A stretch of 64,000 nucleotides of DNA. Origin: an uncultured Acetatifactor sp. GTDB taxonomy: Bacteria; Bacillota; Clostridia; Lachnospirales; Lachnospiraceae. Shown one piece after another: positions 3,936 through 64,000 of this stretch; position 1 is the stretch's first letter, and each line of letters starts with the position of its first letter. Under the pieces are notes generated by a model. It made no database searches. It was not told where the DNA came from and was given only the letters and a program-made list of their open reading frames with translations. The stretch is taken from contig CANQWM010000005.1 of assembly GCA_947627535.1 (NCBI GenBank), positions 58,948 through 122,947 of the forward strand, given 5' to 3'. A program made the position numbers and the translations under genes.

Positions 3936-6470
3936 TTAAACAGGCCTCGAGGCGGTCTCCTTCAGTTCCACTTTATCCAGATGCCAGATTTCATCCACAT
4001 ACTCCTGTATGGTTCTGTCGGAAGTGAACTTACCGGAGCCGGCCACATTGAGAATGGCGCTTTTTGCCCAGCCCGCCTTGTTTCTGTACGCCGCCTCTAC
4101 CTTCTTCTGCGCTTCCGCGTAGGAACGGAAATCCTTCAGAATAAAATAGGTATCCGCCCTGGAAGTGGAAAGCGTATTCAGCAGGGAGTTGTACAGAGGC
4201 CGGAACAGCTCCGTATCCCCGGCATAGGTTCCGTCCACCAGCTGATCCAGGACTCTTCTGATCTCTCCGTCGCTGTTGTAGATATCCATGGGATTGTAAC
4301 CGCCGTTCTGTTCGTAGCCGATGACCTCGTCGGAGCTCAGGCCGAAGATAAACGCATTCTCTTCTCCCACTTCCTCCACGATCTCCACATTGGCGCCGTC
4401 CATGGTGCCCAGCGTCAGCGCGCCGTTCAGCATGAATTTCATGTTGCCGGTGCCGGACGCCTCTTTGCTGGCAGTGGAGATCTGCTCGGATACGTCCGCC
4501 GCCGCAAAGATGATCTCCGCGTTGGAGACGTTGTAGTTCTCAATGAACACCACCTTGATCTTTCCGCCGATGGCAGGGTCGTTGTTGACCACGTCCGCCA
4601 CGGAATTGATCAGCTTGATGGTCAGCTTGGCATTCCGATAGCCTGCGGCGGCCTTTGCGCCGAAGATAAAGGTTCTGGGGAAGAAATCCCTCTCCGGATC
4701 CGCCTTCAGCTGATTGTAGAGATACATCACATGAAGAATATTCAAAAGCTGTCTCTTGTACTCGTGAAGCCGCTTTACCTGCACGTCAAAAATGGAGTCG
4801 GGATCCACGTCAATGCCGTTGTGCTCCTTGATATACTTCGCCAGTCTCAGCTTGTTTTTGCGCTTGATATCCATGAACTCCTTCTGAGCCCTGGCGTTAT
4901 CCGCAATCTCCCTAATCTTTGCGATTTTAGGGAGATCCGTGATCCAACCGTCGCCGACTTTCGCGCTCACCCAGTCCGCCAGCAGCGGGTTGCCGTGGAG
5001 CAGGAATCTTCTCTGGGTGATTCCGTTGGTCTTATTGTTGAACCGCTCGGGATACATTTCGTAAAAATCCCGCAGCTCCTGTTTCTTTAAAATTTCGGTG
5101 TGAAGTCTGGCCACGCCGTTTACGGAATATCCGGCGACAATGGCCATGTGGGCCATCTTGACCTGTCCGTCATACAGAATCGCCATCTTGCGAATCTTTT
5201 CCTGCACATCTACGCCGTAGATGTTGGAGTATTTCTGCTCGATCTCCAGCACAAATCTGCGGTTGATCTCCTCCACGATCTGGTAAATTCTGGGAAGCAG
5301 CCGGGAAAACAGATCAATGGGCCATTTTTCAAGGGCCTCCGCCATGATTGTGTGGTTGGTATAAGCGCAGGTATGGGTGGTGATATACCACGCTTCGTCC
5401 CAGGACAGATCATAATCGTCCAGCAGAATACGCATCAGCTCCGGCACAGCCACGGTGGGGTGCGTGTCGTTTAACTGAAACGTCACCTTCTCGTGGAACT
5501 TATGGATATCGTCATGCTTTTTCATGTATTTTGCCACGGCAGCCTGCACGGACGCGGAGATAAAGAAATACTGCTGCTTTAAGCGAAGCTCCTTGCCCGC
5601 ATAATGGTTGTCGTTGGGATAGAGCACTTCCACAAGGTTTCTGGCCAGGTTTTCCTGCTCCACAGCCTTTCGGTAATCGCCCTGATCGAAGGAATCCAGC
5701 TGGAACACTTCCATGGGCTCCGCGTCCCAGATACGCAGGGTGTTCACAATACCGTTTCCATAGCCTACGATGGGCAGATCGAAGGGGACGGCTCTCACGG
5801 CCTGATATCCCTCCTGAACAAAGCGGCTTCTTCCGTTCTCGTCGGTGCGCATCGCCACATAGCCGCCGAATTTTACGGTCTTTGCGTACTCCGGCCGGCG
5901 CAGCTCAAAGGGGTTGCCGTCAGCCAGCCAGTTGTCCGGCACCTCCACCTGGTAGCCGTCGCGGATTTCCTGCTTGAACATGCCGTACCGGTAGCGGATC
6001 CCGCAGCCGTAAGCGGGATATCCCAGCGTTGCCAGAGAGTCCAGAAAGCATGCGGCCAGACGTCCCAGACCGCCGTTCCCCAGAGCGGCGTCCGGCTCCT
6101 GATCCTCTACCACATTCAGATCCAGTCCCAGTTCCTCCAGCGCTTCCTGCACAGGCTTGTAAGCCTGCATGTTGATCAGGTTGTTTCCCATGGCGCGTCC
6201 CATCAGAAATTCCATGGACATGTAATACACCATCTTGGGGTCTTCCTTCTCATACGCCTTCTGGGTATTCATCCAGTTTTCGATGATCTGATCCTTGATG
6301 GCGAGAGAAGCCGCCTGGAAGATCTGCTGGGGAGTCGCATCCTCCAGCTCCTTGCGGTACTGTGTTCTGATATTGTACAGGACGCTTCTCTTGAAAAGCT
6401 CTTTGTCAAACTTCCGTTTTTCCTTTCCCTTTTCTTTTTCCACCGATTTATTAGGTGTCGCACTTTTCAT
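3936..6470 (-). CDS. glgP: Glycogen/starch phosphorylase
   Basis: LGNGGLGRLAACFLDS, QLNDTHP, QVKRLHEYKRQLLN, PLP-lysine motif EASGTGNMK. Confidence 0.97.
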   Translation of the reverse strand: MKSATPNKSVEKEKGKEKRKFDKELFKRSVLYNIRTQYRKELEDATPQQIFQAASLAIKDQIIENWMNTQKAYEKEDPKMVYYMSMEFLMGRAMGNNLINMQAYKPVQEALEELGLDLNVVEDQEPDAALGNGGLGRLAACFLDSLATLGYPAYGCGIRYRYGMFKQEIRDGYQVEVPDNWLADGNPFELRRPEYAKTVKFGGYVAMRTDENGRSRFVQEGYQAVRAVPFDLPIVGYGNGIVNTLRIWDAEPMEVFQLDSFDQGDYRKAVEQENLARNLVEVLYPNDNHYAGKELRLKQQYFFISASVQAAVAKYMKKHDDIHKFHEKVTFQLNDTHPTVAVPELMRILLDDYDLSWDEAWYITTHTCAYTNHTIMAEALEKWPIDLFSRLLPRIYQIVEEINRRFVLEIEQKYSNIYGVDVQEKIRKMAILYDGQVKMAHMAIVAGYSVNGVARLHTEILKKQELRDFYEMYPERFNNKTNGITQRRFLLHGNPLLADWVSAKVGDGWITDLPKIAKIREIADNARAQKEFMDIKRKNKLRLAKYIKEHNGIDVDPDSIFDVQVKRLHEYKRQLLNILHVMYLYNQLKADPERDFFPRTFIFGAKAAAGYRNAKLTIKLINSVADVVNNDPAIGGKIKVVFIENYNVSNAEIIFAAADVSEQISTASKEASGTGNMKFMLNGALTLGTMDGANVEIVEEVGEENAFIFGLSSDEVIGYEQNGGYNPMDIYNSDGEIRRVLDQLVDGTYAGDTELFRPLYNSLLNTLSTSRADTYFILKDFRSYAEAQKKVEAAYRNKAGWAKSAILNVAGSGKFTSDRTIQEYVDEIWHLDKVELKETASRPV

Positions 6471-55594: not shown

Positions 55595-57292
55595 TCAGGA
55601 ACCGATATAATTCCTCACAAGCTCCCAGGCTCCGGCATTGCCGTAACCCAGGCACCATACCGCCGCACCTCCCAGATCCTTGGCATTCATCACATTCAGC
55701 TTGATCCGCAGGCTCTCTTCGTTTTCTATCCAGATCCGGAAAGTCGCCTCCCCTTCCTGCCATTCGGCATAATACTGGCCCAGTTCCTCATCCCATACCG
55801 CCTTATCCATATAATCGGATGCTTTTTTGAGCCTGACAGAGGCGTCCGTGACTTTAGTTCCTTCTGTCTTCCACAGAAGCATATAGAAGGGGAGCGCATT
55901 TACAACCTTCTTTGCAGGCACCTTTTCCAGCGTTCTGTCAAGACCGCCGGAGACAAATCCGATACTGGCCGTGCTGCCGGGATCACCGCTGCCGCTCCAG
56001 TGCTCGTCATATCCCATGATGATCACATAGTCCGCGATCTGTCCCTGTATATCCAGACGGTAATAATCATTATAATCGTAAGGCACATGGTTCGCCACGG
56101 ACAGAAACAATCCGTTCTCCTGGCAAAGGACCGACAATTCCCGCAAAAACTGAATAAAATGCTCTCCGCAATCCTGTGTCAGACCTTCAAAATCAATGTT
56201 GACGCCATCCATACCGTATTCCAGAGTCGTGCTTACCATGTCCGAAACCAGCTTCTGCCGGACGGATGTAGAAGAAAGGATCCCCAGCGTACTTACCTCC
56301 GCTCCCTCCACCTCCGCGGCGTAATTAAAATTATCCCAGGTGCCCCAGACCTGCAGGCCCTGGTCATGGGCCTTCTTTACATAATCCGCGTCGGCATAGG
56401 ACCGGAATCCGCCGGCGTTGTCCGACAGGCTGAACCAGACGGGCGCAAGTACATTGATGGCATAGCTTCCGTCGGAAGTCCTGCACTCCGCAAGCGCATC
56501 GCTCAGGGAGGAACTCCAGACGGGATGCCACCCCAGACTCAGCTTCCCTTCCAGGGCCAGATCCGTATGCCGGGGTTCCACATAATCCGTCACCGGAGTC
56601 TCTATCTCCGTGCTCAGTCCCCCCAGCCGCTTGTTCTCTACATAGCCGATGACCGCGTCCGAAGTCTTTACCAGGCTCCATTTATCCATCTGCTTCAGAA
56701 GCTCCACGGTCTCTCCCTTCTTCAGTTCCCGCAGGATCGGGCTCTTTATGCCGCCGCGGGTACGGACCTGGGTGTTTTTCGACACCGTCATGACTTCCTT
56801 TACCCCCCACTCCGTGTAAACCTGCAGATGCCTGTCATACCGGACATACTCATAGTTGGTAAACTGCCTGACATAATCTGCCGCCACATAAAGGGCCCCC
56901 TCTTCCAGAAAGCAGACCGTGTAGGGCGTCTGTATATCCTCGCCCGCAGCATTTTTATATCCTGTCTGCCCGAACATCGCGGCGGCGGTGCCTTCCGCGG
57001 TAGTATAGAGCAGTTTTTGTTCGTTGTAATCGGCGTAAAAGCCTTCATTCAGGTACTGATGCACCGTACCCAGGTCAAAATAGACGATATCGCCCTGCAG
57101 CAGGGCCTTTTCCTCCACCATCCCGTCCTGCAGGATGATGGCCAGTCTGCCGTCCGTCACACCGTAATATTCGTCCAGATCGGCAGTCTCTTTTCCGTAA
57201 GAATACTTGTCCAGAAGCTGTCCTCCAAAATAGACGCCGCCGATTATCACGATCAGCAGCAATGCAACAATTACAGGTATTATCCGTTTCAT
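55595..57292 (-). CDS. Glycoside hydrolase family 18 protein with an SH3b domain, membrane-anchored (spore-cortex hydrolase-like)
   Basis: N-terminal TM; SH3b (VRTRGGIKSPIL...WSLVKT...IGYVE); GH18 DGVNIDFE, DYVIIMGYDEH, GAAVWCLG. Confidence 0.88.
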   Translation of the reverse strand: MKRIIPVIVALLLIVIIGGVYFGGQLLDKYSYGKETADLDEYYGVTDGRLAIILQDGMVEEKALLQGDIVYFDLGTVHQYLNEGFYADYNEQKLLYTTAEGTAAAMFGQTGYKNAAGEDIQTPYTVCFLEEGALYVAADYVRQFTNYEYVRYDRHLQVYTEWGVKEVMTVSKNTQVRTRGGIKSPILRELKKGETVELLKQMDKWSLVKTSDAVIGYVENKRLGGLSTEIETPVTDYVEPRHTDLALEGKLSLGWHPVWSSSLSDALAECRTSDGSYAINVLAPVWFSLSDNAGGFRSYADADYVKKAHDQGLQVWGTWDNFNYAAEVEGAEVSTLGILSSTSVRQKLVSDMVSTTLEYGMDGVNIDFEGLTQDCGEHFIQFLRELSVLCQENGLFLSVANHVPYDYNDYYRLDIQGQIADYVIIMGYDEHWSGSGDPGSTASIGFVSGGLDRTLEKVPAKKVVNALPFYMLLWKTEGTKVTDASVRLKKASDYMDKAVWDEELGQYYAEWQEGEATFRIWIENEESLRIKLNVMNAKDLGGAAVWCLGYGNAGAWELVRNYIGS

Positions 57293-58354: not shown

Positions 58355-59092
58355 ATGAAAATAGAGAAGGTAAATGAAAACCAGATCCGCTGTACCCTGA
58401 CGAAAGAAGACCTGATAAGCCGTGAGCTGAAAATCAGCGAGCTGGCTTACGGCACGGAAAAGGCCAAAAACCTTTTTCGGGATATGATGCGTCAGGCCAA
58501 CTTTGAATTTGGCTTTGAAGCCGAGGACATCCCTCTGATGATAGAAGCGATTCCCCTGAACGCCGAGTGCATCGTACTGATCATCACGAAAGTGGAGGAT
58601 CCGGAGGAACTGGATACCCGTTTTTCACGGTTTGCCCCCTCCGTCACCGAGGACAGCGAATATGACGAAGAAACGGAAGAATATGGCGAAACCGCCTCGG
58701 ACGGTGCCGCAGATCTTTTGCAGAATCTGCAGCCCGATGCCCGGGAAACCGTTCAGGGCGGCGGGGCTGCCGACGATAACGCCGCCGCAGACGGGCGCAT
58801 GCGGACAAGAATTTTCCGGATCCGCACCCTGCAGCTTGTGATGGAAGTATCTGCAGTCATCGCGGACCACTATCACGGTCTGAGTTCTCTGTACAAGGAT
58901 GCCTCTTCCGGCCAGTATCTGCTGCTGATGACGCAGGGAGACGAGAGCCGGGAAGGGTTTGACCGCTCCTGCAACATTATCTCCGAATACGGCACCCTCC
59001 TTCGGGCCATGTCGTCCGGAGGTACTTTTCTCGAAGAACACAGCGAAGCTCTGGTTAGGGAAAACGCCGTTCAGACTTTGGGAAAGCTGTAA
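58355..59092 (+). CDS. mecA: ClpC adaptor MecA
   Basis: MKIEKVNENQIRCTLTKEDL, LMIEAIP, C-terminal CNIISEYG; promoter TTGACT-17-TAAGAT at 58267-58295. Confidence 0.88.
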   Translation: MKIEKVNENQIRCTLTKEDLISRELKISELAYGTEKAKNLFRDMMRQANFEFGFEAEDIPLMIEAIPLNAECIVLIITKVEDPEELDTRFSRFAPSVTEDSEYDEETEEYGETASDGAADLLQNLQPDARETVQGGGAADDNAAADGRMRTRIFRIRTLQLVMEVSAVIADHYHGLSSLYKDASSGQYLLLMTQGDESREGFDRSCNIISEYGTLLRAMSSGGTFLEEHSEALVRENAVQTLGKL

Positions 59093-59110
59093 AAAATACA
59101 CCCCGGCATA

Positions 59111-59144
59111 AAAACTGCCGCTCTGTTACAGAGCGGCAATTTTT
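59111..59144. terminator. Bidirectional terminator between mecA and the DUF1858 gene
   Basis: TGCCGCTCTG-tta-CAGAGCGGCA flanked by A and T runs. Confidence 0.8.
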
Positions 59145-59317
59145 GTCATTAAATCATCGATATCCATACCGTGTACCATCGCAGCTTCCTCCAGGGTTTC
59201 TCCCTGTGCGGAAGGGCACCCGAGACAGTGCATGCCCGCCTCCATCAAAACCGGCGCCACATCCGGATTGACGCGCAGGATCTCACCGATGGTCATTTCC
59301 TTGGTGATCTTATTCAT
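59126..59317 (-). CDS. DUF1858 (hybrid-cluster-associated redox disulfide) small protein
   Basis: [14 protein letters not shown]...[23 protein letters not shown]; RBS AAGGAGG; start moved to 59317. Confidence 0.9.
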
Positions 59318-59456
59318 CGTGTCACCTCCTTTTGCATAATCAGTATAATACTTTCTCTCATGCTTGACAAGCAGTTCCATAAAAGAACAAATTATAAAAG
59401 GTTTATAAAACCGGTGCAAAATCGTCACATGTACCCGAAAAAATACACGTCTGCGC

Positions 59457-59485
59457 TTGACTCGATTTCCCGTTTTACATATAAT
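59457..59485 (+). promoter_or_regulatory. SigA promoter of the pfl locus
   Basis: TTGACT-17-TATAAT. Confidence 0.8.
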
Positions 59486-59555
59486 GAAGCTAAGGATTAG
59501 AAGCAACGTTTTTTACTACCAAACTAATTCAAATACTTATAGGAGGCTATTCAAA

Positions 59556-61595
59556 ATGAGAGCAGAATGGACAGATTTTGTAACTGGCAAGTGGGACAAA
59601 GAAATCAATGTCCGCGACTTCATCCAGAGAAACTATCATCCCTATGACGGCGATGAGAGCTTTCTGGCCGGCCCTACTCAGAACACCAAGGATCTGTGGG
59701 CACAGGTGCTTGACCTGCAGAAAAAAGAGAGAGAAGCGGGCGGCGTTCTGGACATGGACACCAAGGTGGTATCTACCATCACCTCCCACGGCCCCGGATA
59801 TCTTGACAAGAGCAAGGAAACCATCGTAGGCTTCCAGACCGACAAGCCCTTCAAGCGTTCCCTGCAGCCTTACGGCGGTATCCGCATGGCGGAGAAGGCG
59901 TGCGCAGACAACGGCTATGAAGTGGATCCTGAGATTTCCGAGTTTTTCACGGTTCACAGAAAGACTCACAACGCAGGCTGCTTTGACGCTTACAATCAGG
60001 AAATGAGAGCATGCCGTTCTTCCCATATCATCACCGGCCTTCCTGACGCTTACGGCCGCGGCCGTATCATCGGCGACTACAGACGTGTCGCTCTGTACGG
60101 CATTGACAGACTGATCGAGGATAAGCAGGCTCAGAAGGATTCCACCGGCCGCGTGATGACCGATGACGTAATCCGTCTGCGCGAGGAGATCTCCGAGCAG
60201 ATGACCGCTCTGAAGCTGATGAAGGAGATGGCTGCATCCTACGGCTGCGATATTTCCAAGCCCGCCGCAAATGTAAAAGAGGCAATCCAGTGGACCTACT
60301 TCGGATATCTGTGCGCTGTAAAGGAGCAGAACGGCGCCGCAATGTCTCTGGGACGTACCTCCACCTTCCTCGACTGCTATGCAGAGAGAGATTTAAAGAA
60401 CGGCACCTTTACCGAGGAACAGATCCAGGAGTTCGTGGATCACTTCATCATGAAGCTTCGCTGCATCAAGTTTGCACGTACTCCCGAGTACAACCAGATC
60501 TTCGCGGGCGATCCCGTTTGGGTCACCGAGTCTCTGGGCGGTGTAGGCGTTGACGGCAGACCCATGGTTACAAAGATGAGCTTCCGTTACCTGAATACCT
60601 TAACCAACCTCGGACCTTCTCCCGAGCCCAACCTTACCGTTCTCTGGTCCACAAGACTTCCCGAGAACTGGAAGAGATACTGCGCGAAGATGTCCATTCA
60701 GACCTCTTCCATCCAGTACGAGAATGACGACCTGATGAGAGTGGTTCACGGCGATGACTATGGTATCGCATGCTGCGTATCCTCCATGGTAATCGGCAAG
60801 GAGATGCAGTTCTTCGGTGCCCGCGCCAATGTCGCGAAGTGCCTGCTTTACGCTTTGAACGGCGGTGTGGACGAAGTTACCAAGAAGCAGGTCGGCCCCA
60901 AGTACCGCCCTGTTACCGGCGACGTTCTGGATTACGACGACGTTTACAGCAAGTTTATGGATATGCTGGAATGGCAGGCGGATGTGTATGTAAATACCCT
61001 GAACATCATACACTATATGCATGACAAATACTGCTATGAGAGAGCAGAGATGGCACTGCATGACAGAGACGTAAAGCGCTACTTTGCAACCGGTGTCGCA
61101 GGTCTTTCCATCGTAGCCGACTCCCTTTCCGCCATCAAGTATGCGAAGGTGGAGCCCATCCGTGACGAGGACGGCATTATCGTAGACTTTAAGACGACCG
61201 GCGACTTCCCGAAATACGGCAACGACGACGACCGTGTTGACGAGATCGCTCAGGATGTGGTACACAAGTTCATGACCGCTGTAAGAAGACATCACACCTA
61301 CAGAAACGGCATCCCTACCACCTCCATCCTGACCATTACCTCTAACGTTACCTATGGTAAGGCTACCGGTAATACACCCGACGGACGTAAGAAGGGCCAG
61401 CCTTTCGCTCCCGGTGCGAACCCCATGCACGGCCGCGATACCCACGGCGCAGTCGCTTCCCTTTCCTCCGTCTCCAAGCTGCCCTTCAATGATGCGCAGG
61501 ATGGTATCTCCAATACCTTCACCATCATTCCCGGCGCTCTGGGCAAGGAAGATAAGGTGTTCGCAGGCGACATCGAACTGGATCTGAACAAATAA
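59556..61595 (+). CDS. pflB: Pyruvate formate-lyase catalytic core (679 aa) lacking the glycyl-radical domain
   Basis: [25 protein letters not shown], active-site IACCVS (Cys406-Cys407), [13 protein letters not shown]; ends [19 protein letters not shown]-stop with no RVSGY; RBS AGGAGG. Confidence 0.93.
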
Positions 61596-61630
61596 TTCTG
61601 CTTTGAATAAAATATGTTTCAGGAGGCACT

Positions 61631-61834
61631 ATGGACGAAAAAAATATGATTGACGACCTGGTTAAAATGCTCGATTCCGGCATGGCTGACGGCGTCGGCC
61701 ATGTGAATGTGGACTATGACGGACAGGGCGAACAGTCAAAAAACGTTCAGACAATGGGCTGCACGGATTGCTCCAGAACGCCGCTGGCCTGCAGCGTGCC
61801 CACCCTTGAACAGGGACTGGACGATTATCAATGA
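61631..61834 (+). CDS. 67-aa protein: glycyl-radical-domain-like N-terminus with a Cys-rich tail and no radical Gly
   Basis: RBS AGGAGG at 61621-26; IDDLVKMLDSGMADGVGHVNV aligns without gaps to [21 protein letters not shown] of the downstream GrcA; C44xxC47 and C54. Confidence 0.8.
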   Translation: MDEKNMIDDLVKMLDSGMADGVGHVNVDYDGQGEQSKNVQTMGCTDCSRTPLACSVPTLEQGLDDYQ

Positions 61835-61858
61835 CCGGGCCCGCAAAAAAGGAACCAG

Positions 61859-61886
61859 CCGGGGAACGGGTTTCCCCGCTCCCCGG
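61859..61886 (+). other. GC-rich stem-loop without a U tract, upstream of grcA
   Basis: CCGGGGAACGGG-tttc-CCCGCTCCCCGG (11 of 12 pairs), followed by AAACAAAAC. Confidence 0.6.
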
Positions 61887-61936
61887 AAACAAAACAACTT
61901 TCATACTACCAATACTATCATAAGGAGGACAAAACT

Positions 61937-62179
61937 ATGGCAGCAAGCACAGCACAGGTTGACAACCTTGTAAACTTATTGGATGGATACGCAACAAAAG
62001 GCGGCCATCACCTGAACGTGAACGTTCTGAACAGAGACACGCTTCTGGACGCTCAGAAGCATCCGGAGAATTATCCTCAGCTTACCATCCGGGTATCCGG
62101 ATATGCAGTCAACTTCATCAAGCTGACTCCTGAACAGCAGGCTGACGTTATCTCCCGTACCTTCCATGAGTCGATCTGA
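61937..62179 (+). CDS. grcA: Stand-alone glycyl-radical domain (GrcA/YfiD-like), 80 aa
   Basis: [28 protein letters not shown] (Gly55), ISRTFH; RBS AAGGAGG. Confidence 0.95.
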
Positions 62180-62219
62180 GATACTTCGGCTTAAAAATCA
62201 GTTAGGATAACTGACACAG

Positions 62220-62248
62220 AAGGAGCACCGCCAGCCGGTGCTCCTTTT
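62220..62248 (+). terminator. Intrinsic terminator between grcA and pflA
   Basis: AAGGAGCACCG-ccagc-CGGTGCTCCTT-TT. Confidence 0.8.
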
Positions 62249-62298
62249 CAGTTCCTTGGGGAATACGATAAACAGGAAAATGAAAGGAGAAATGCGCT

Positions 62299-63051
62299 AT
62301 GCAGGGCAGGATCCACTCTTTGGAAAGTTTCGGCACAGTCGACGGCCCCGGCACCCGTTTTGTGGTATTTGTGCAGGGCTGTCCCATGCGATGCGCTTAC
62401 TGCCACAATCCCGATACCTGGGACATGAACGGCGGCACGATGATGGAGCCATCCTATATCATCGAACAGTACGAACGAAACAGCCCTTTTTATGAACACG
62501 GAGGCGGGCTGACCGTCACCGGCGGAGAACCTCTGATGCAGATTGATTTCCTGATCGATCTTTTCACCCTTGCAAAGGAAAAGGATATTCATACCTGTAT
62601 CGACACCTCCGGAATTGCCTTTAATCCTGAGAGCGACACGCAGCAGGAAAAACTGGACCGGCTCATGAAGCTGACAGATCTTGTTATGCTCGATATCAAA
62701 CACATTGACCCGGAAAAGCACAAGGACCTGACCGGACAGCCCAATAAGAATATTCTGAAATTTGCCGAATATCTGAACGAGAAAAAGGTTGACATGTGGA
62801 TCCGTCATGTAGTCGTTCCGGGCATTACAGACGATGACAAATACCTGTTTGATCTGGGATATTATATCGGCCAGTTTGAAAATCTGAAGGCTCTGGATGT
62901 TCTCCCGTATCATACCATGGGAGAGAAAAAATATCAGAGTCTGGGAATGGAATACCGGCTGAAGGGCGTTCCGCCCATGGACCAGAAAAAGCTGCTGGAG
63001 AAAAAACAGGTGATCCTGGAAGGCATCAAAAAGCGGCGGGCGCAAATTTAA
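62299..63051 (+). CDS. pflA: Pyruvate formate-lyase activating enzyme (radical SAM)
   Basis: ESFGTVDGPG, CPMRCAYCHNPDTW (CxxxCxxC), TGGEPLMQ, LDIKHID, LPYHTMG. Confidence 0.96.
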   Translation: MQGRIHSLESFGTVDGPGTRFVVFVQGCPMRCAYCHNPDTWDMNGGTMMEPSYIIEQYERNSPFYEHGGGLTVTGGEPLMQIDFLIDLFTLAKEKDIHTCIDTSGIAFNPESDTQQEKLDRLMKLTDLVMLDIKHIDPEKHKDLTGQPNKNILKFAEYLNEKKVDMWIRHVVVPGITDDDKYLFDLGYYIGQFENLKALDVLPYHTMGEKKYQSLGMEYRLKGVPPMDQKKLLEKKQVILEGIKKRRAQI

Positions 63052-63142
63052 AATAATCCTTGTAATTGCCCGAGGATTATATTACAATAAGAAAGATGAC
63101 TGACTTACATGGTTTAGTTTTAATAAAAGGAGGATTCATAGT

Positions 63143-63313
63143 ATGGCATACGTAATCAGCGATGCTTGTGTGGCCTGCGGCGCATGCGAGGCTCAGTGCC
63201 CCGTAGGTGCGATCAGCATGGGGGACGGAAAGTTCGAGATCGACCCCGAAAAGTGCATTGACTGCGGTTCCTGCGCAGGCACCTGCCCTACCGGATCTAT
63301 CTCTCAGGGTTAA
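63143..63313 (+). CDS. fdx: 2[4Fe-4S] ferredoxin, 56 aa
   Basis: Absent from the ORF track: MAYVISDACVACGACEAQCPVGAIS...CIDCGSCAGTCPTGSISQG; two CxxCxxCxxxCP motifs; RBS AAGGAGG; promoter TTGTAA-17-TACAAT at 63060-63088. Confidence 0.95.
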   Translation: MAYVISDACVACGACEAQCPVGAISMGDGKFEIDPEKCIDCGSCAGTCPTGSISQG

Positions 63314-63330
63314 TAAAAATTCTGAAAGTT

Positions 63331-63363
63331 AAGGCACCTCATTGCGAGGTGCCTTTCTTTTTT
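63331..63363. terminator. Terminator after the ferredoxin gene, at the convergence with the MerR-like gene
   Basis: AAGGCACCTC-attgc-GAGGTGCCTT plus a T tract. Confidence 0.8.
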
Positions 63364-64000
63364 TTCCCAAGACCAAACTGTCTGGATTTCGTTTTTTTCC
63401 TCAACAGCTCGTCCATCCTTTTATAATGCTCCTCATCCCGTTCCGCGAGCATCTTATCCCGGAGTTCCTCCCGTTCTTCCTGCATTCTGAACTGATAGTC
63501 CAGTTCCTTTACGACGCTTTCCTTGATCTCTTGACAGAGCTCGCCGTTATTTTCCCTGAGTGTCTCCCGTATCAGCTGCTGCAGGAGCCACTGCAGCCTT
63601 CTGGACTTGTCCTCTCTGCTCTCAGTCGTAACCCGGCGGTCTCTGCTGTCTACAATGTCTATGGCAAGGCCCGTTTCTTCCTGTTCGTATTCCGGTTCCG
63701 CATTTTTCTGTTCCTCCGTCTTTGGCATGCTTTCAGGTATGTCTGTCCCCCTGCCCTGCTCTCCGTCAGGAAGTACATCCAGCTTTCCATCGCGCAGGAT
63801 CATTTTAATCGCTTTCAACTGCAACCCTCTCTCCTTCATTCCTTTAATCTGTTTAAACCGCTCTACATCCTCCTGAGTATAGTAGCGATGGCCGAGCTCA
63901 TTGCGCTTGATCGGCAGATGCAGTTCTTCTTCCCAATAGCGCAGCACATGGCTTTCGACCTTCACTTCTTTTGCAGCGTCAGAAATAAACAGATAGTCAC
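63339..64000 (-). CDS. MerR-family HTH protein, 5' end beyond the window
   Basis: Frame stays open to the window edge (DYLFISDAAKEVKVESHVLRYWEEEL...RNELGHRYY); C-terminal coiled coil. Confidence 0.85.
   Translation of the reverse strand, partial: DYLFISDAAKEVKVESHVLRYWEEELHLPIKRNELGHRYYTQEDVERFKQIKGMKERGLQLKAIKMILRDGKLDVLPDGEQGRGTDIPESMPKTEEQKNAEPEYEQEETGLAIDIVDSRDRRVTTESREDKSRRLQWLLQQLIRETLRENNGELCQEIKESVVKELDYQFRMQEEREELRDKMLAERDEEHYKRMDELLRKKTKSRQFGLGKKKKGTSQ

Follow-up and report, generated by a model that had tools for sequence, protein, structure and literature searches.

Among glycyl radical enzymes, pyruvate formate-lyase (PFL) is the one most widely distributed, and it carries out a central step of fermentation. 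In a 64,000-nt stretch of DNA from an uncultured Acetatifactor sp. (the window, whose positions are used for all coordinates below), a gene cluster at ~59.4–63.4 kb on the + strand encodes a PFL in pieces: the pflB gene stops ahead of the glycyl radical domain, and that domain is encoded by a separate small gene, grcA3. The question raised by this locus is whether it carries a damaged enzyme or an enzyme that is naturally built from more than one chain. The comparisons described here strongly support the conclusion that the catalytic barrel and the glycyl radical domain are separate, conserved and co-transcribed genes, and they make it probable, judging from the sequences, that the truncated large subunit (the core) and GrcA3 form the active enzyme, a constitutively heteromeric PFL. 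A third gene, orf67, lies between the two; what could least have been anticipated in the system is its organisation in three parts and the orf67 family.

The core gene (pflB; 59556–61595, + strand) encodes a 679-aa protein comprising the PFL barrel and an acidic C-terminal tail. It matched PF02901 end to end (732.9 bits) and scored 1098.1 bits against TIGR01255, above the cut-off of 994.2, over profile positions 2–665 of 744, while only the first half of PF01228 was covered (profile positions 1–51 of 106). The catalytic pair, within IAC406C407VSS, aligned with the adjacent cysteines C418-C419 of E. coli PFL structures. In the alignment to E. coli PFL, core residues 3–669 corresponded to PFL residues 9–681, placing the end of the core at approximately PFL residue 681; the last helix, strand β10, the Gly loop and the C-terminal helix are missing. 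The RVSGY motif is absent from the core chain and the radical motif sits instead on a separate 80-aa product. Thus, the core has the TIGR01255 score, the cysteine pair and the nearby TIGR02493 activase of a PFL, and what it lacks is a radical motif on the same chain.

The remaining portion is the product of grcA3 (61937–62179, + strand), which has its own ribosome binding site (RBS; AAGGAGG) and ATG. This 80-aa glycyl radical subunit matched PF01228 at positions 50–106 and TIGR01255 at positions 665–744, and it consists of a helix, strand β10, the RVSG55Y loop and a helix at the C terminus, with residues 9–79 aligning to residues 683–758 of E. coli PFL (PDB sequences). Core and GrcA3 together span TIGR01255 positions 2–744, abutting at position 665, and their lengths sum to 759 aa (679 + 80); each of the genes is preceded by an RBS. 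GrcA3 falls within family NF038360 (161.5 bits, cut-off 158; profile positions 2–78 of 78) and outside the GrcA/YfiD family TIGR04365 (100.7 bits against a cut-off of 170), of which it matched positions 65–126 only, the N-terminal half being missing. A preliminary description of the locus had reported a 679-aa PflB with Cys406-Cys407 and no RVSGY, followed about 340 nt downstream by an 80-aa open reading frame with an AAGGAGG RBS that held the rest of PFL. All of these elements were found where it had placed them, the Pfam and TIGR01255 coverage agrees, and the gap measures 341 nt. It had counted two parts and named no gene in the gap, and here it has to be corrected: the gap contains a conserved 67-aa gene, orf67 (61631–61834, + strand), with its own RBS (CAGGAGG), making three parts at this locus.

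Homologues of orf67 numbered 1751 at 90% clustering and fell into 186 clusters when grouped at 50% identity; with few exceptions the listed proteins are 40–100 residues long, some being truncated or frameshifted fragments. Profile–profile alignment (hhalign) indicated that orf67 residues 3–33 are homologous to GrcA3 residues 4–34 (probability 95.5%, E 1.4e-8), a shared segment that equals PFL helix 683–692 plus barrel strand β10. The N-terminal half of the family is made up of a helix (I-D-D-I/L-V-x-M-L-D), then G-x-G-H-x-N-V, then a variable acidic linker; the C-terminal motif (V-x-T, D-C, 4–6 residues, A-C-x-V/I-P-T-L-x-x-G-L/I-D-D) includes two conserved cysteines. The RVxG[FYW] motif is absent from orf67, and the finger and C-terminal helix of the radical domain have no detectable counterpart in it. 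Apart from the weak hint of GrcA3, sequence and profile searches of Pfam, NCBIfam and the PDB returned no match to this uncharacterised small-protein family, whose members are named ‘hypothetical’. Three candidate relationships were rejected. Homology of the C-terminal half to the Gly finger appeared only in a greedy, low-confidence alignment, the YfiD N-terminus showed no similarity to orf67, and a 1035-aa repetitive protein (P0304) with 14 copies of a unit containing QCTGCSKDALIICSLPML is an unrelated repeat protein whose resemblance to the orf67 motif is probably due to chance.

Two sets of loci were compared. For the genome set, one genome per species was scanned with the 80-aa GrcA3 and the best 80 of >590 matches were taken, nearly all of them labelled Lachnospiraceae or gut metagenome-assembled genomes (MAGs; Acetatifactor and relatives). 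The metagenome set, an independent sample, consists of 80 loci seeded with distant orf67 relatives, 36–56% identical to orf67 of the window. The order core-orf67-grcA3 was present in 59/80 loci of the genome set and 76/80 of the metagenome set; in the latter a truncated core lay upstream in 78/80 and grcA3 downstream in 78/80, and the exceptions to the three-gene order were contig ends. In every orf67 locus examined the gene sits between core and grcA3. Downstream of grcA3, pflA was found in 51/80 genome loci and 62/80 metagenome loci, usually with a ferredoxin gene after it, and the core was linked to both grcA3 and pflA in ~135/140 of the loci holding orf67. Wherever a locus includes the end of the core, the stop position is constant and an acidic tail is present, with at most ~20 codons past the ALGK motif. 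The same stop recurs in >130 independent loci from many species and two phyla, cultured isolates included. The 90%-identity cluster of the core has 4368 members, among which the 15 listed (the cultured Acetatifactor muris being one) are all 678–679 aa long except one with an over-extended N-terminus. A 681-aa version from ‘Eubacterium sp. CAG:274’ occurs abundantly in the human gut, individual sequence variants being found on as many as 1000 contigs or more.

Relative to related loci, at which synonymous sites are saturated (pS ~0.67–0.75), the ratio of non-synonymous to synonymous change (dN/dS) was 0.034 for the core, 0.032 for grcA3, 0.073 for orf67 and 0.071 for pflA. Across related loci the core retained ~95% amino-acid identity and pflA ~77%, while the upstream gene mecA retained ~50%, which brings out the stronger conservation of the PFL core. 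A 425-nt contig from a mouse-gut RNA library runs unspliced from the final part of the core through orf67 into the beginning of grcA3. The preliminary description had held that the split is the constitutive architecture, had suggested surveying relatives for the truncation point and gene order, and had named a core unique to this strain and unexpressed, with a full-length PFL elsewhere, as a finding that would speak against it. The survey found truncation point and order to be widely shared and the core far from unique; that the split is the normal architecture rather than a lesion is strongly supported by comparative genomics, purifying selection, RNA contigs and the published E. coli truncation experiments considered below.

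A second lineage was reached through the PDB. Two entries titled ‘Formate acetyltransferase’ matched the window core best: 38LB, with 739 residues, and 38LA, a construct of 687 residues that ends at ALGK. These entries must post-date April 2026, since they are missing from a Foldseek structure library frozen on 8 April 2026, and no paper on them was found in the literature. A search with the reconstructed 38LB sequence returned a 718-aa protein, of which a near-identical 718-aa member of the 90% cluster is named Fannyhessea vaginae formate C-acetyltransferase, together with a large set of ‘formate C-acetyltransferases’ of 693–723 aa, those with a named source being from Olsenella and Thermophilibacter. 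The 38LB/38LA core is ~70% identical to the window core over residues 1–674, has the same truncation point and adjoins GrcA3 and pflA. In these Atopobiaceae loci the core stops at the same point as in the window and continues into a Cys-rich tail (for example ...MFGELDLDALGVDIQIENPAPDCGCC), followed directly by an 80–83-aa gene of the GrcA3 family (above the NF038360 cut-off) and then by pflA; orf67 is absent. The F. vaginae 38LB core has a 44-residue Cys-rich tail in cis (...TIENKPDCAC...) and no orf67. The distribution is complementary throughout, orf67 accompanying short-tailed cores in ~135 loci and Cys-tailed cores occurring without it in 6 loci. It is this complementarity that suggests functional equivalence of orf67 and the cis tail; sequence similarity lends no support, and the idea that the tails are fused copies of orf67 was rejected because a hidden Markov model (HMM) of the orf67 family gave no match to them.

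Two further observations concern this lineage. Fannyhessea (Atopobium) vaginae secretes formate in culture, an output reduced by ~90% with 1 mM hypophosphite, and in vivo data contain PFL peptides that can be assigned to a set of 16 genera, Fannyhessea among them (PMC12208373). Provided that no other PFL is present, this secretion is indirect evidence that the split type works. Separately, one locus (L165, 3501–5966) encodes an 821-aa ‘PFL’ (P0122) with an internal 140-residue duplication that is probably an assembly artefact. Its core is Lachnospiraceae-like in sequence yet has a cis Cys tail (...LEPDCACCEP...), and GrcA3 and pflA are present while orf67 is absent; this may represent a third arrangement, outside the Atopobiaceae.

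Several known systems are comparable. GrcA3 resembles E. coli GrcA/YfiD (and phage T4 Y06I), which receive their radical from the PFL activase, in its β strand, RVSGY finger and C-terminal helix, and GrcA3 residues 20–80 align to YfiD 67–127. In E. coli, however, PflB has its full length of 760 aa, and YfiD serves as a post-damage repair part that restores the activity of PFL deprived of its own radical domain (PMC13450708, PMC8683613), whereas here the large subunit always lacks the domain. GrcA3 is also without the 60-residue disordered N-terminus of YfiD and carries PFL helix 683–692 in its place. An engineered E. coli enzyme, tPFL(1–695) with truncYfiD(61–127), has nearly the same cut as the natural split, with β10 and the radical domain supplied in trans, and its kcat,app was 204/s compared with 105/s for wild-type, per radical (PMC8683613; Andorfer et al, 2021). 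The natural split differs in that the cut lies ~14 residues earlier, the core bears an acidic tail and orf67 is added. In oxygen-cleaved PFL, residues 696–733 contain a duplicate of the strand supplied by YfiD and are needed for YfiD binding and activation (PMC8683613); orf67 resembles this β10-region segment required for YfiD recruitment.

The name of family NF038360, ‘autonomous glycyl radical cofactor GrcA3’, describes a spare part and is silent on a truncated partner PFL. Small Cys-containing proteins that bind a large subunit occur among other glycyl radical enzymes, namely the β and γ subunits of benzylsuccinate synthase (BSS) and the γ subunit of 4-hydroxyphenylacetate decarboxylase, and the BSS small subunits influence movement of the radical domain. 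Unlike orf67, which has two conserved cysteines and an N-terminus shared with the radical domain, those subunits have a [4Fe-4S] cluster, at least 4 cysteines and unrelated sequences. A 2026 review of glycyl radical enzymes treats spare parts as repair proteins only and leaves split PFLs unmentioned (PMC13450708); a search for ‘GrcA3’ gave no literature match, and no published description of a natural split PFL was found. The curated GrcA3 HMM and the 2026 PDB entries show that these proteins have already been noticed by others.

According to the proposed mechanism, the core would form a barrel with Cys406-Cys407, stopping at a surface loop that corresponds to residue ~681 of the E. coli enzyme, and GrcA3 would add non-covalently the last helix, β10, the finger with Gly55 (equivalent to G734) and the C-terminal helix. 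PflA, encoded by pflA (62299–63051, + strand), is a 250-aa PFL-activating radical S-adenosylmethionine enzyme (TIGR02493, 295.5 bits, cut-off 231.75; PF04055) that would place the radical on Gly55 after being reduced by the adjacent ferredoxin, from where the radical would move to Cys407/Cys406 of the core for pyruvate cleavage. The activation and radical-transfer steps are proposed because of homology with E. coli PFL. The ferredoxin itself (63143–63313, + strand; 56 aa, 2×[4Fe-4S]; PF00037 and related families) is the likely electron donor to PflA.

Several points weigh against this scheme. The engineered E. coli split binds YfiD too weakly for isothermal titration calorimetry, and its activation is below that of cPFL:YfiD, 32-fold for tPFL:YfiD and ~6-fold for tPFL:truncYfiD (PMC8683613); hence, a split enzyme is not automatically efficient. 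In its C-terminal half, orf67 shows no significant resemblance to the glycyl radical domain, the Atopobiaceae cis tails or the YfiD N-terminus, and the role ascribed to orf67 rests on N-terminal homology and gene distribution. Both single-chain structure predictions made with AlphaFold2 were uninformative. For orf67 alone a helix (residues 3–19) followed by disorder was predicted (pLDDT 53), which fits a protein that might fold on its partner; the 718-aa Fannyhessea core gave pLDDT 41.6, and Foldseek with this model recovered E. coli PFL via the sequence term. Finally, although RNA contigs show deep coverage of the core, this depth comes from contigs of a mixed-strain community and may include DNA.

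In this scheme orf67 would be a dedicated third component. Its first 30 residues are paralogous to the helix and strand with which GrcA3 docks, and it would thus most likely bind the slot of the core that receives GrcA3, its Cys motif then standing in for the radical finger. At somewhat less than even odds, we suggest that it is a placeholder or loading factor displaced by GrcA3, a trans version of the role that PFL residues 696–733 play in YfiD recruitment. It could be redox-gated through its cysteines, and in the Atopobiaceae the cis Cys tail may do a related job. A more elaborate version is tentative: in a three-component machine, orf67 would mimic the ‘stump’ of oxygen-cleaved PFL, fill the β10 slot of the empty core with its Cys hairpin at the finger site, and be exchanged for GrcA3 in a redox-dependent manner, possibly via a DUF1858 protein encoded next to the cluster, the Atopobiaceae device being a Cys-rich tail fused to the core. 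If this were true, the radical would be loaded only in a reduced cell.

The same features of orf67 allow the opposite role. As a negative regulator, it would be a decoy that blocks the GrcA3 slot and switches PFL off, for example when oxidised; this would account for the homology to the docking element, the lack of a radical glycine motif, the conserved cysteines and the neighbouring DUF1858 redox-disulfide gene, whereas co-transcription directly upstream of grcA3 would be unusual for a pure inhibitor. We regard a decoy as possible though doubtful, and the decoy and loading-factor readings are computationally indistinguishable.

An alternative explanation for the locus as a whole is that GrcA3 serves solely as a spare part in the classical sense, for a full-length PFL whose gene lies elsewhere, the truncated core having another role or being a decaying duplicate. 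E. coli-type GrcA does serve a full-length PFL, and stand-alone grcA3 copies, likewise above the NF038360 cut-off, make up 20/80 loci of the genome set. Against this, the core ranks among the most conserved genes of the locus by both identity and dN/dS; its Cys pair is intact, its TIGR01255 score exceeds the cut-off, physical linkage with grcA3 and pflA holds in nearly all loci with orf67, and the split point coincides with the GrcA3 N-terminus to the residue. The spare-part explanation is accordingly improbable, and a heteromeric enzyme of core and GrcA3 is preferred.

The stand-alone copies have neighbourhoods of their own. A Crp/Fnr-type regulator was found upstream of stand-alone grcA3 in 7/7 neighbours tested, and copies near a Crp/Fnr-family gene of ~220–233 aa, usually directly 3′ of it, were seen in L019, L029, L035, L053, L060, L064, L065, L074 and L078 (locus positions ~5100–6250; ~1900–2950 in L060), several of them directly after groES-groEL. 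In L020, L046, L071 and L073 stand-alone grcA3 adjoins genes that, judged by length and order, resemble those of spoIIIA-type operons. One MAG (CAMWJC01) contains both an operon grcA3 and a stand-alone grcA3 (L025, L068), which suggests at least two copies per genome, barring binning error. A phage collection also had GrcA-like sequences in 1586 of its records, for the most part from T4/T5-like enterobacterial phages, and two short ‘Bacteriophage sp.’ contigs from human faeces (MT838895.1, 2055–2294; MT838692.1, 5954–6178) code for a protein that shares 82% identity with GrcA3 from end to end.

Much less likely still is that the interrupted gene yields a single full-length PFL after all, through intron or intein splicing, ribosomal bypass or frameshifting. 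Phage glycyl radical enzyme genes such as T4 nrdD carry group I introns, and the core and GrcA3 parts abut exactly. Against this, an Rfam scan of 59000–64000 found no significant family, intron or otherwise, even at E ≤ 10, and the RNA contig spanning the gap is unspliced. The intervening DNA is orf67, a gene with its own RBS and under purifying selection; the spacers of the core-orf67-grcA3 array vary widely between loci, from 4 to 690 nt for orf67-grcA3 and from 12 to 175 nt for the other; and grcA3, with its own RBS and ATG, also occurs alone. An assembly error, which the preliminary description had listed as a possible refutation, or a strain-specific nonsense mutation creating a pseudogene, is already refuted: although the window is from a metagenome-type assembly and matches rabbit-gut metagenomes best at the DNA level, contigs from three independent gut-metagenome studies cross 61499–62400 without joints and agree across the junctions, and the same core stop recurs, under strong purifying selection, in many loci, cultured isolates among them.

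The remaining features of the cluster concern its expression and surroundings. By consensus match, a sigma-70-like promoter (TTGACT-17-TATAAT; 59457–59485, + strand) was identified ~70 nt upstream of pflB; it agrees at 11/12 positions, better than any other site in the region. Two RNA hairpins flank grcA3. The first, in the orf67-grcA3 spacer (61859–61886, + strand), is stable (minimum free energy (MFE) –28.2 kcal/mol, z –2.6) and is likely not conserved, because the length of that spacer differs so widely among loci. The second, 3′ of grcA3 and 5′ of pflA (62218–62248, + strand; MFE –22.6 kcal/mol, z –5.6), is strong and is followed by a U-rich stretch (UUUUC); a strict terminator scan gave no call there, and we regard it as a terminator-like or attenuating element before pflA. 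Together the hairpins may set separate expression levels for core, grcA3 and pflA. The cluster ends at an intrinsic terminator-like site (63331–63355, + strand; terminator scan). A gene for a MerR-family regulator (63339–63965, – strand) converges on this end of the cluster, and 36 genome loci and ~10 metagenome loci likewise have a homologue of it after the ferredoxin gene.

Divergent from pflB is the gene for the DUF1858 protein (59126–59317, – strand), which is 63 aa long, has an HCLGCP motif and matched PF08984 (90.2 bits) and TIGR03980, ‘hybrid cluster protein-associated redox disulfide’ (100.9 bits). In 36 genome-set and 20 metagenome-set loci a homologue occupies the same divergent position upstream of the core, whereas a search of four Atopobiaceae loci (L081–L084) revealed none; the protein is a possible thiol–disulfide partner of the orf67 cysteines. 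Further upstream, mecA (58355–59092, + strand) encodes an adaptor protein and has its own terminator; it is syntenic in many related loci yet, as noted, poorly conserved. A 565-aa GH18/SH3_3 protein with an N-terminal membrane anchor (55595–57292, – strand) is unrelated to the split PFL.

Cultured bacteria from the gut and the vagina have the split type (Acetatifactor muris, Olsenella uli, Fannyhessea vaginae and ‘Eubacterium sp. CAG:274’), and metagenome sequences show it in their thousands. The cores are annotated plainly as ‘formate C-acetyltransferase’, orf67 as ‘hypothetical’ and GrcA3 as a spare part, names that leave metabolic reconstructions blind to the need for three genes. According to PMC8683613, structures of PFL:YfiD and PFL:activase complexes were lacking, and a natural non-covalent core:GrcA3 pair would be a ready-made model for exit and re-entry of the radical domain and for spare-part docking. 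For the bacteria themselves, the arrangement would mean that after cleavage by oxygen GrcA3 alone would need replacing, with the extra grcA3 copies serving as spares; the presence of stand-alone grcA3 near Crp/Fnr-type regulators fits this idea, and an advantage in oxygen economy is plausible.

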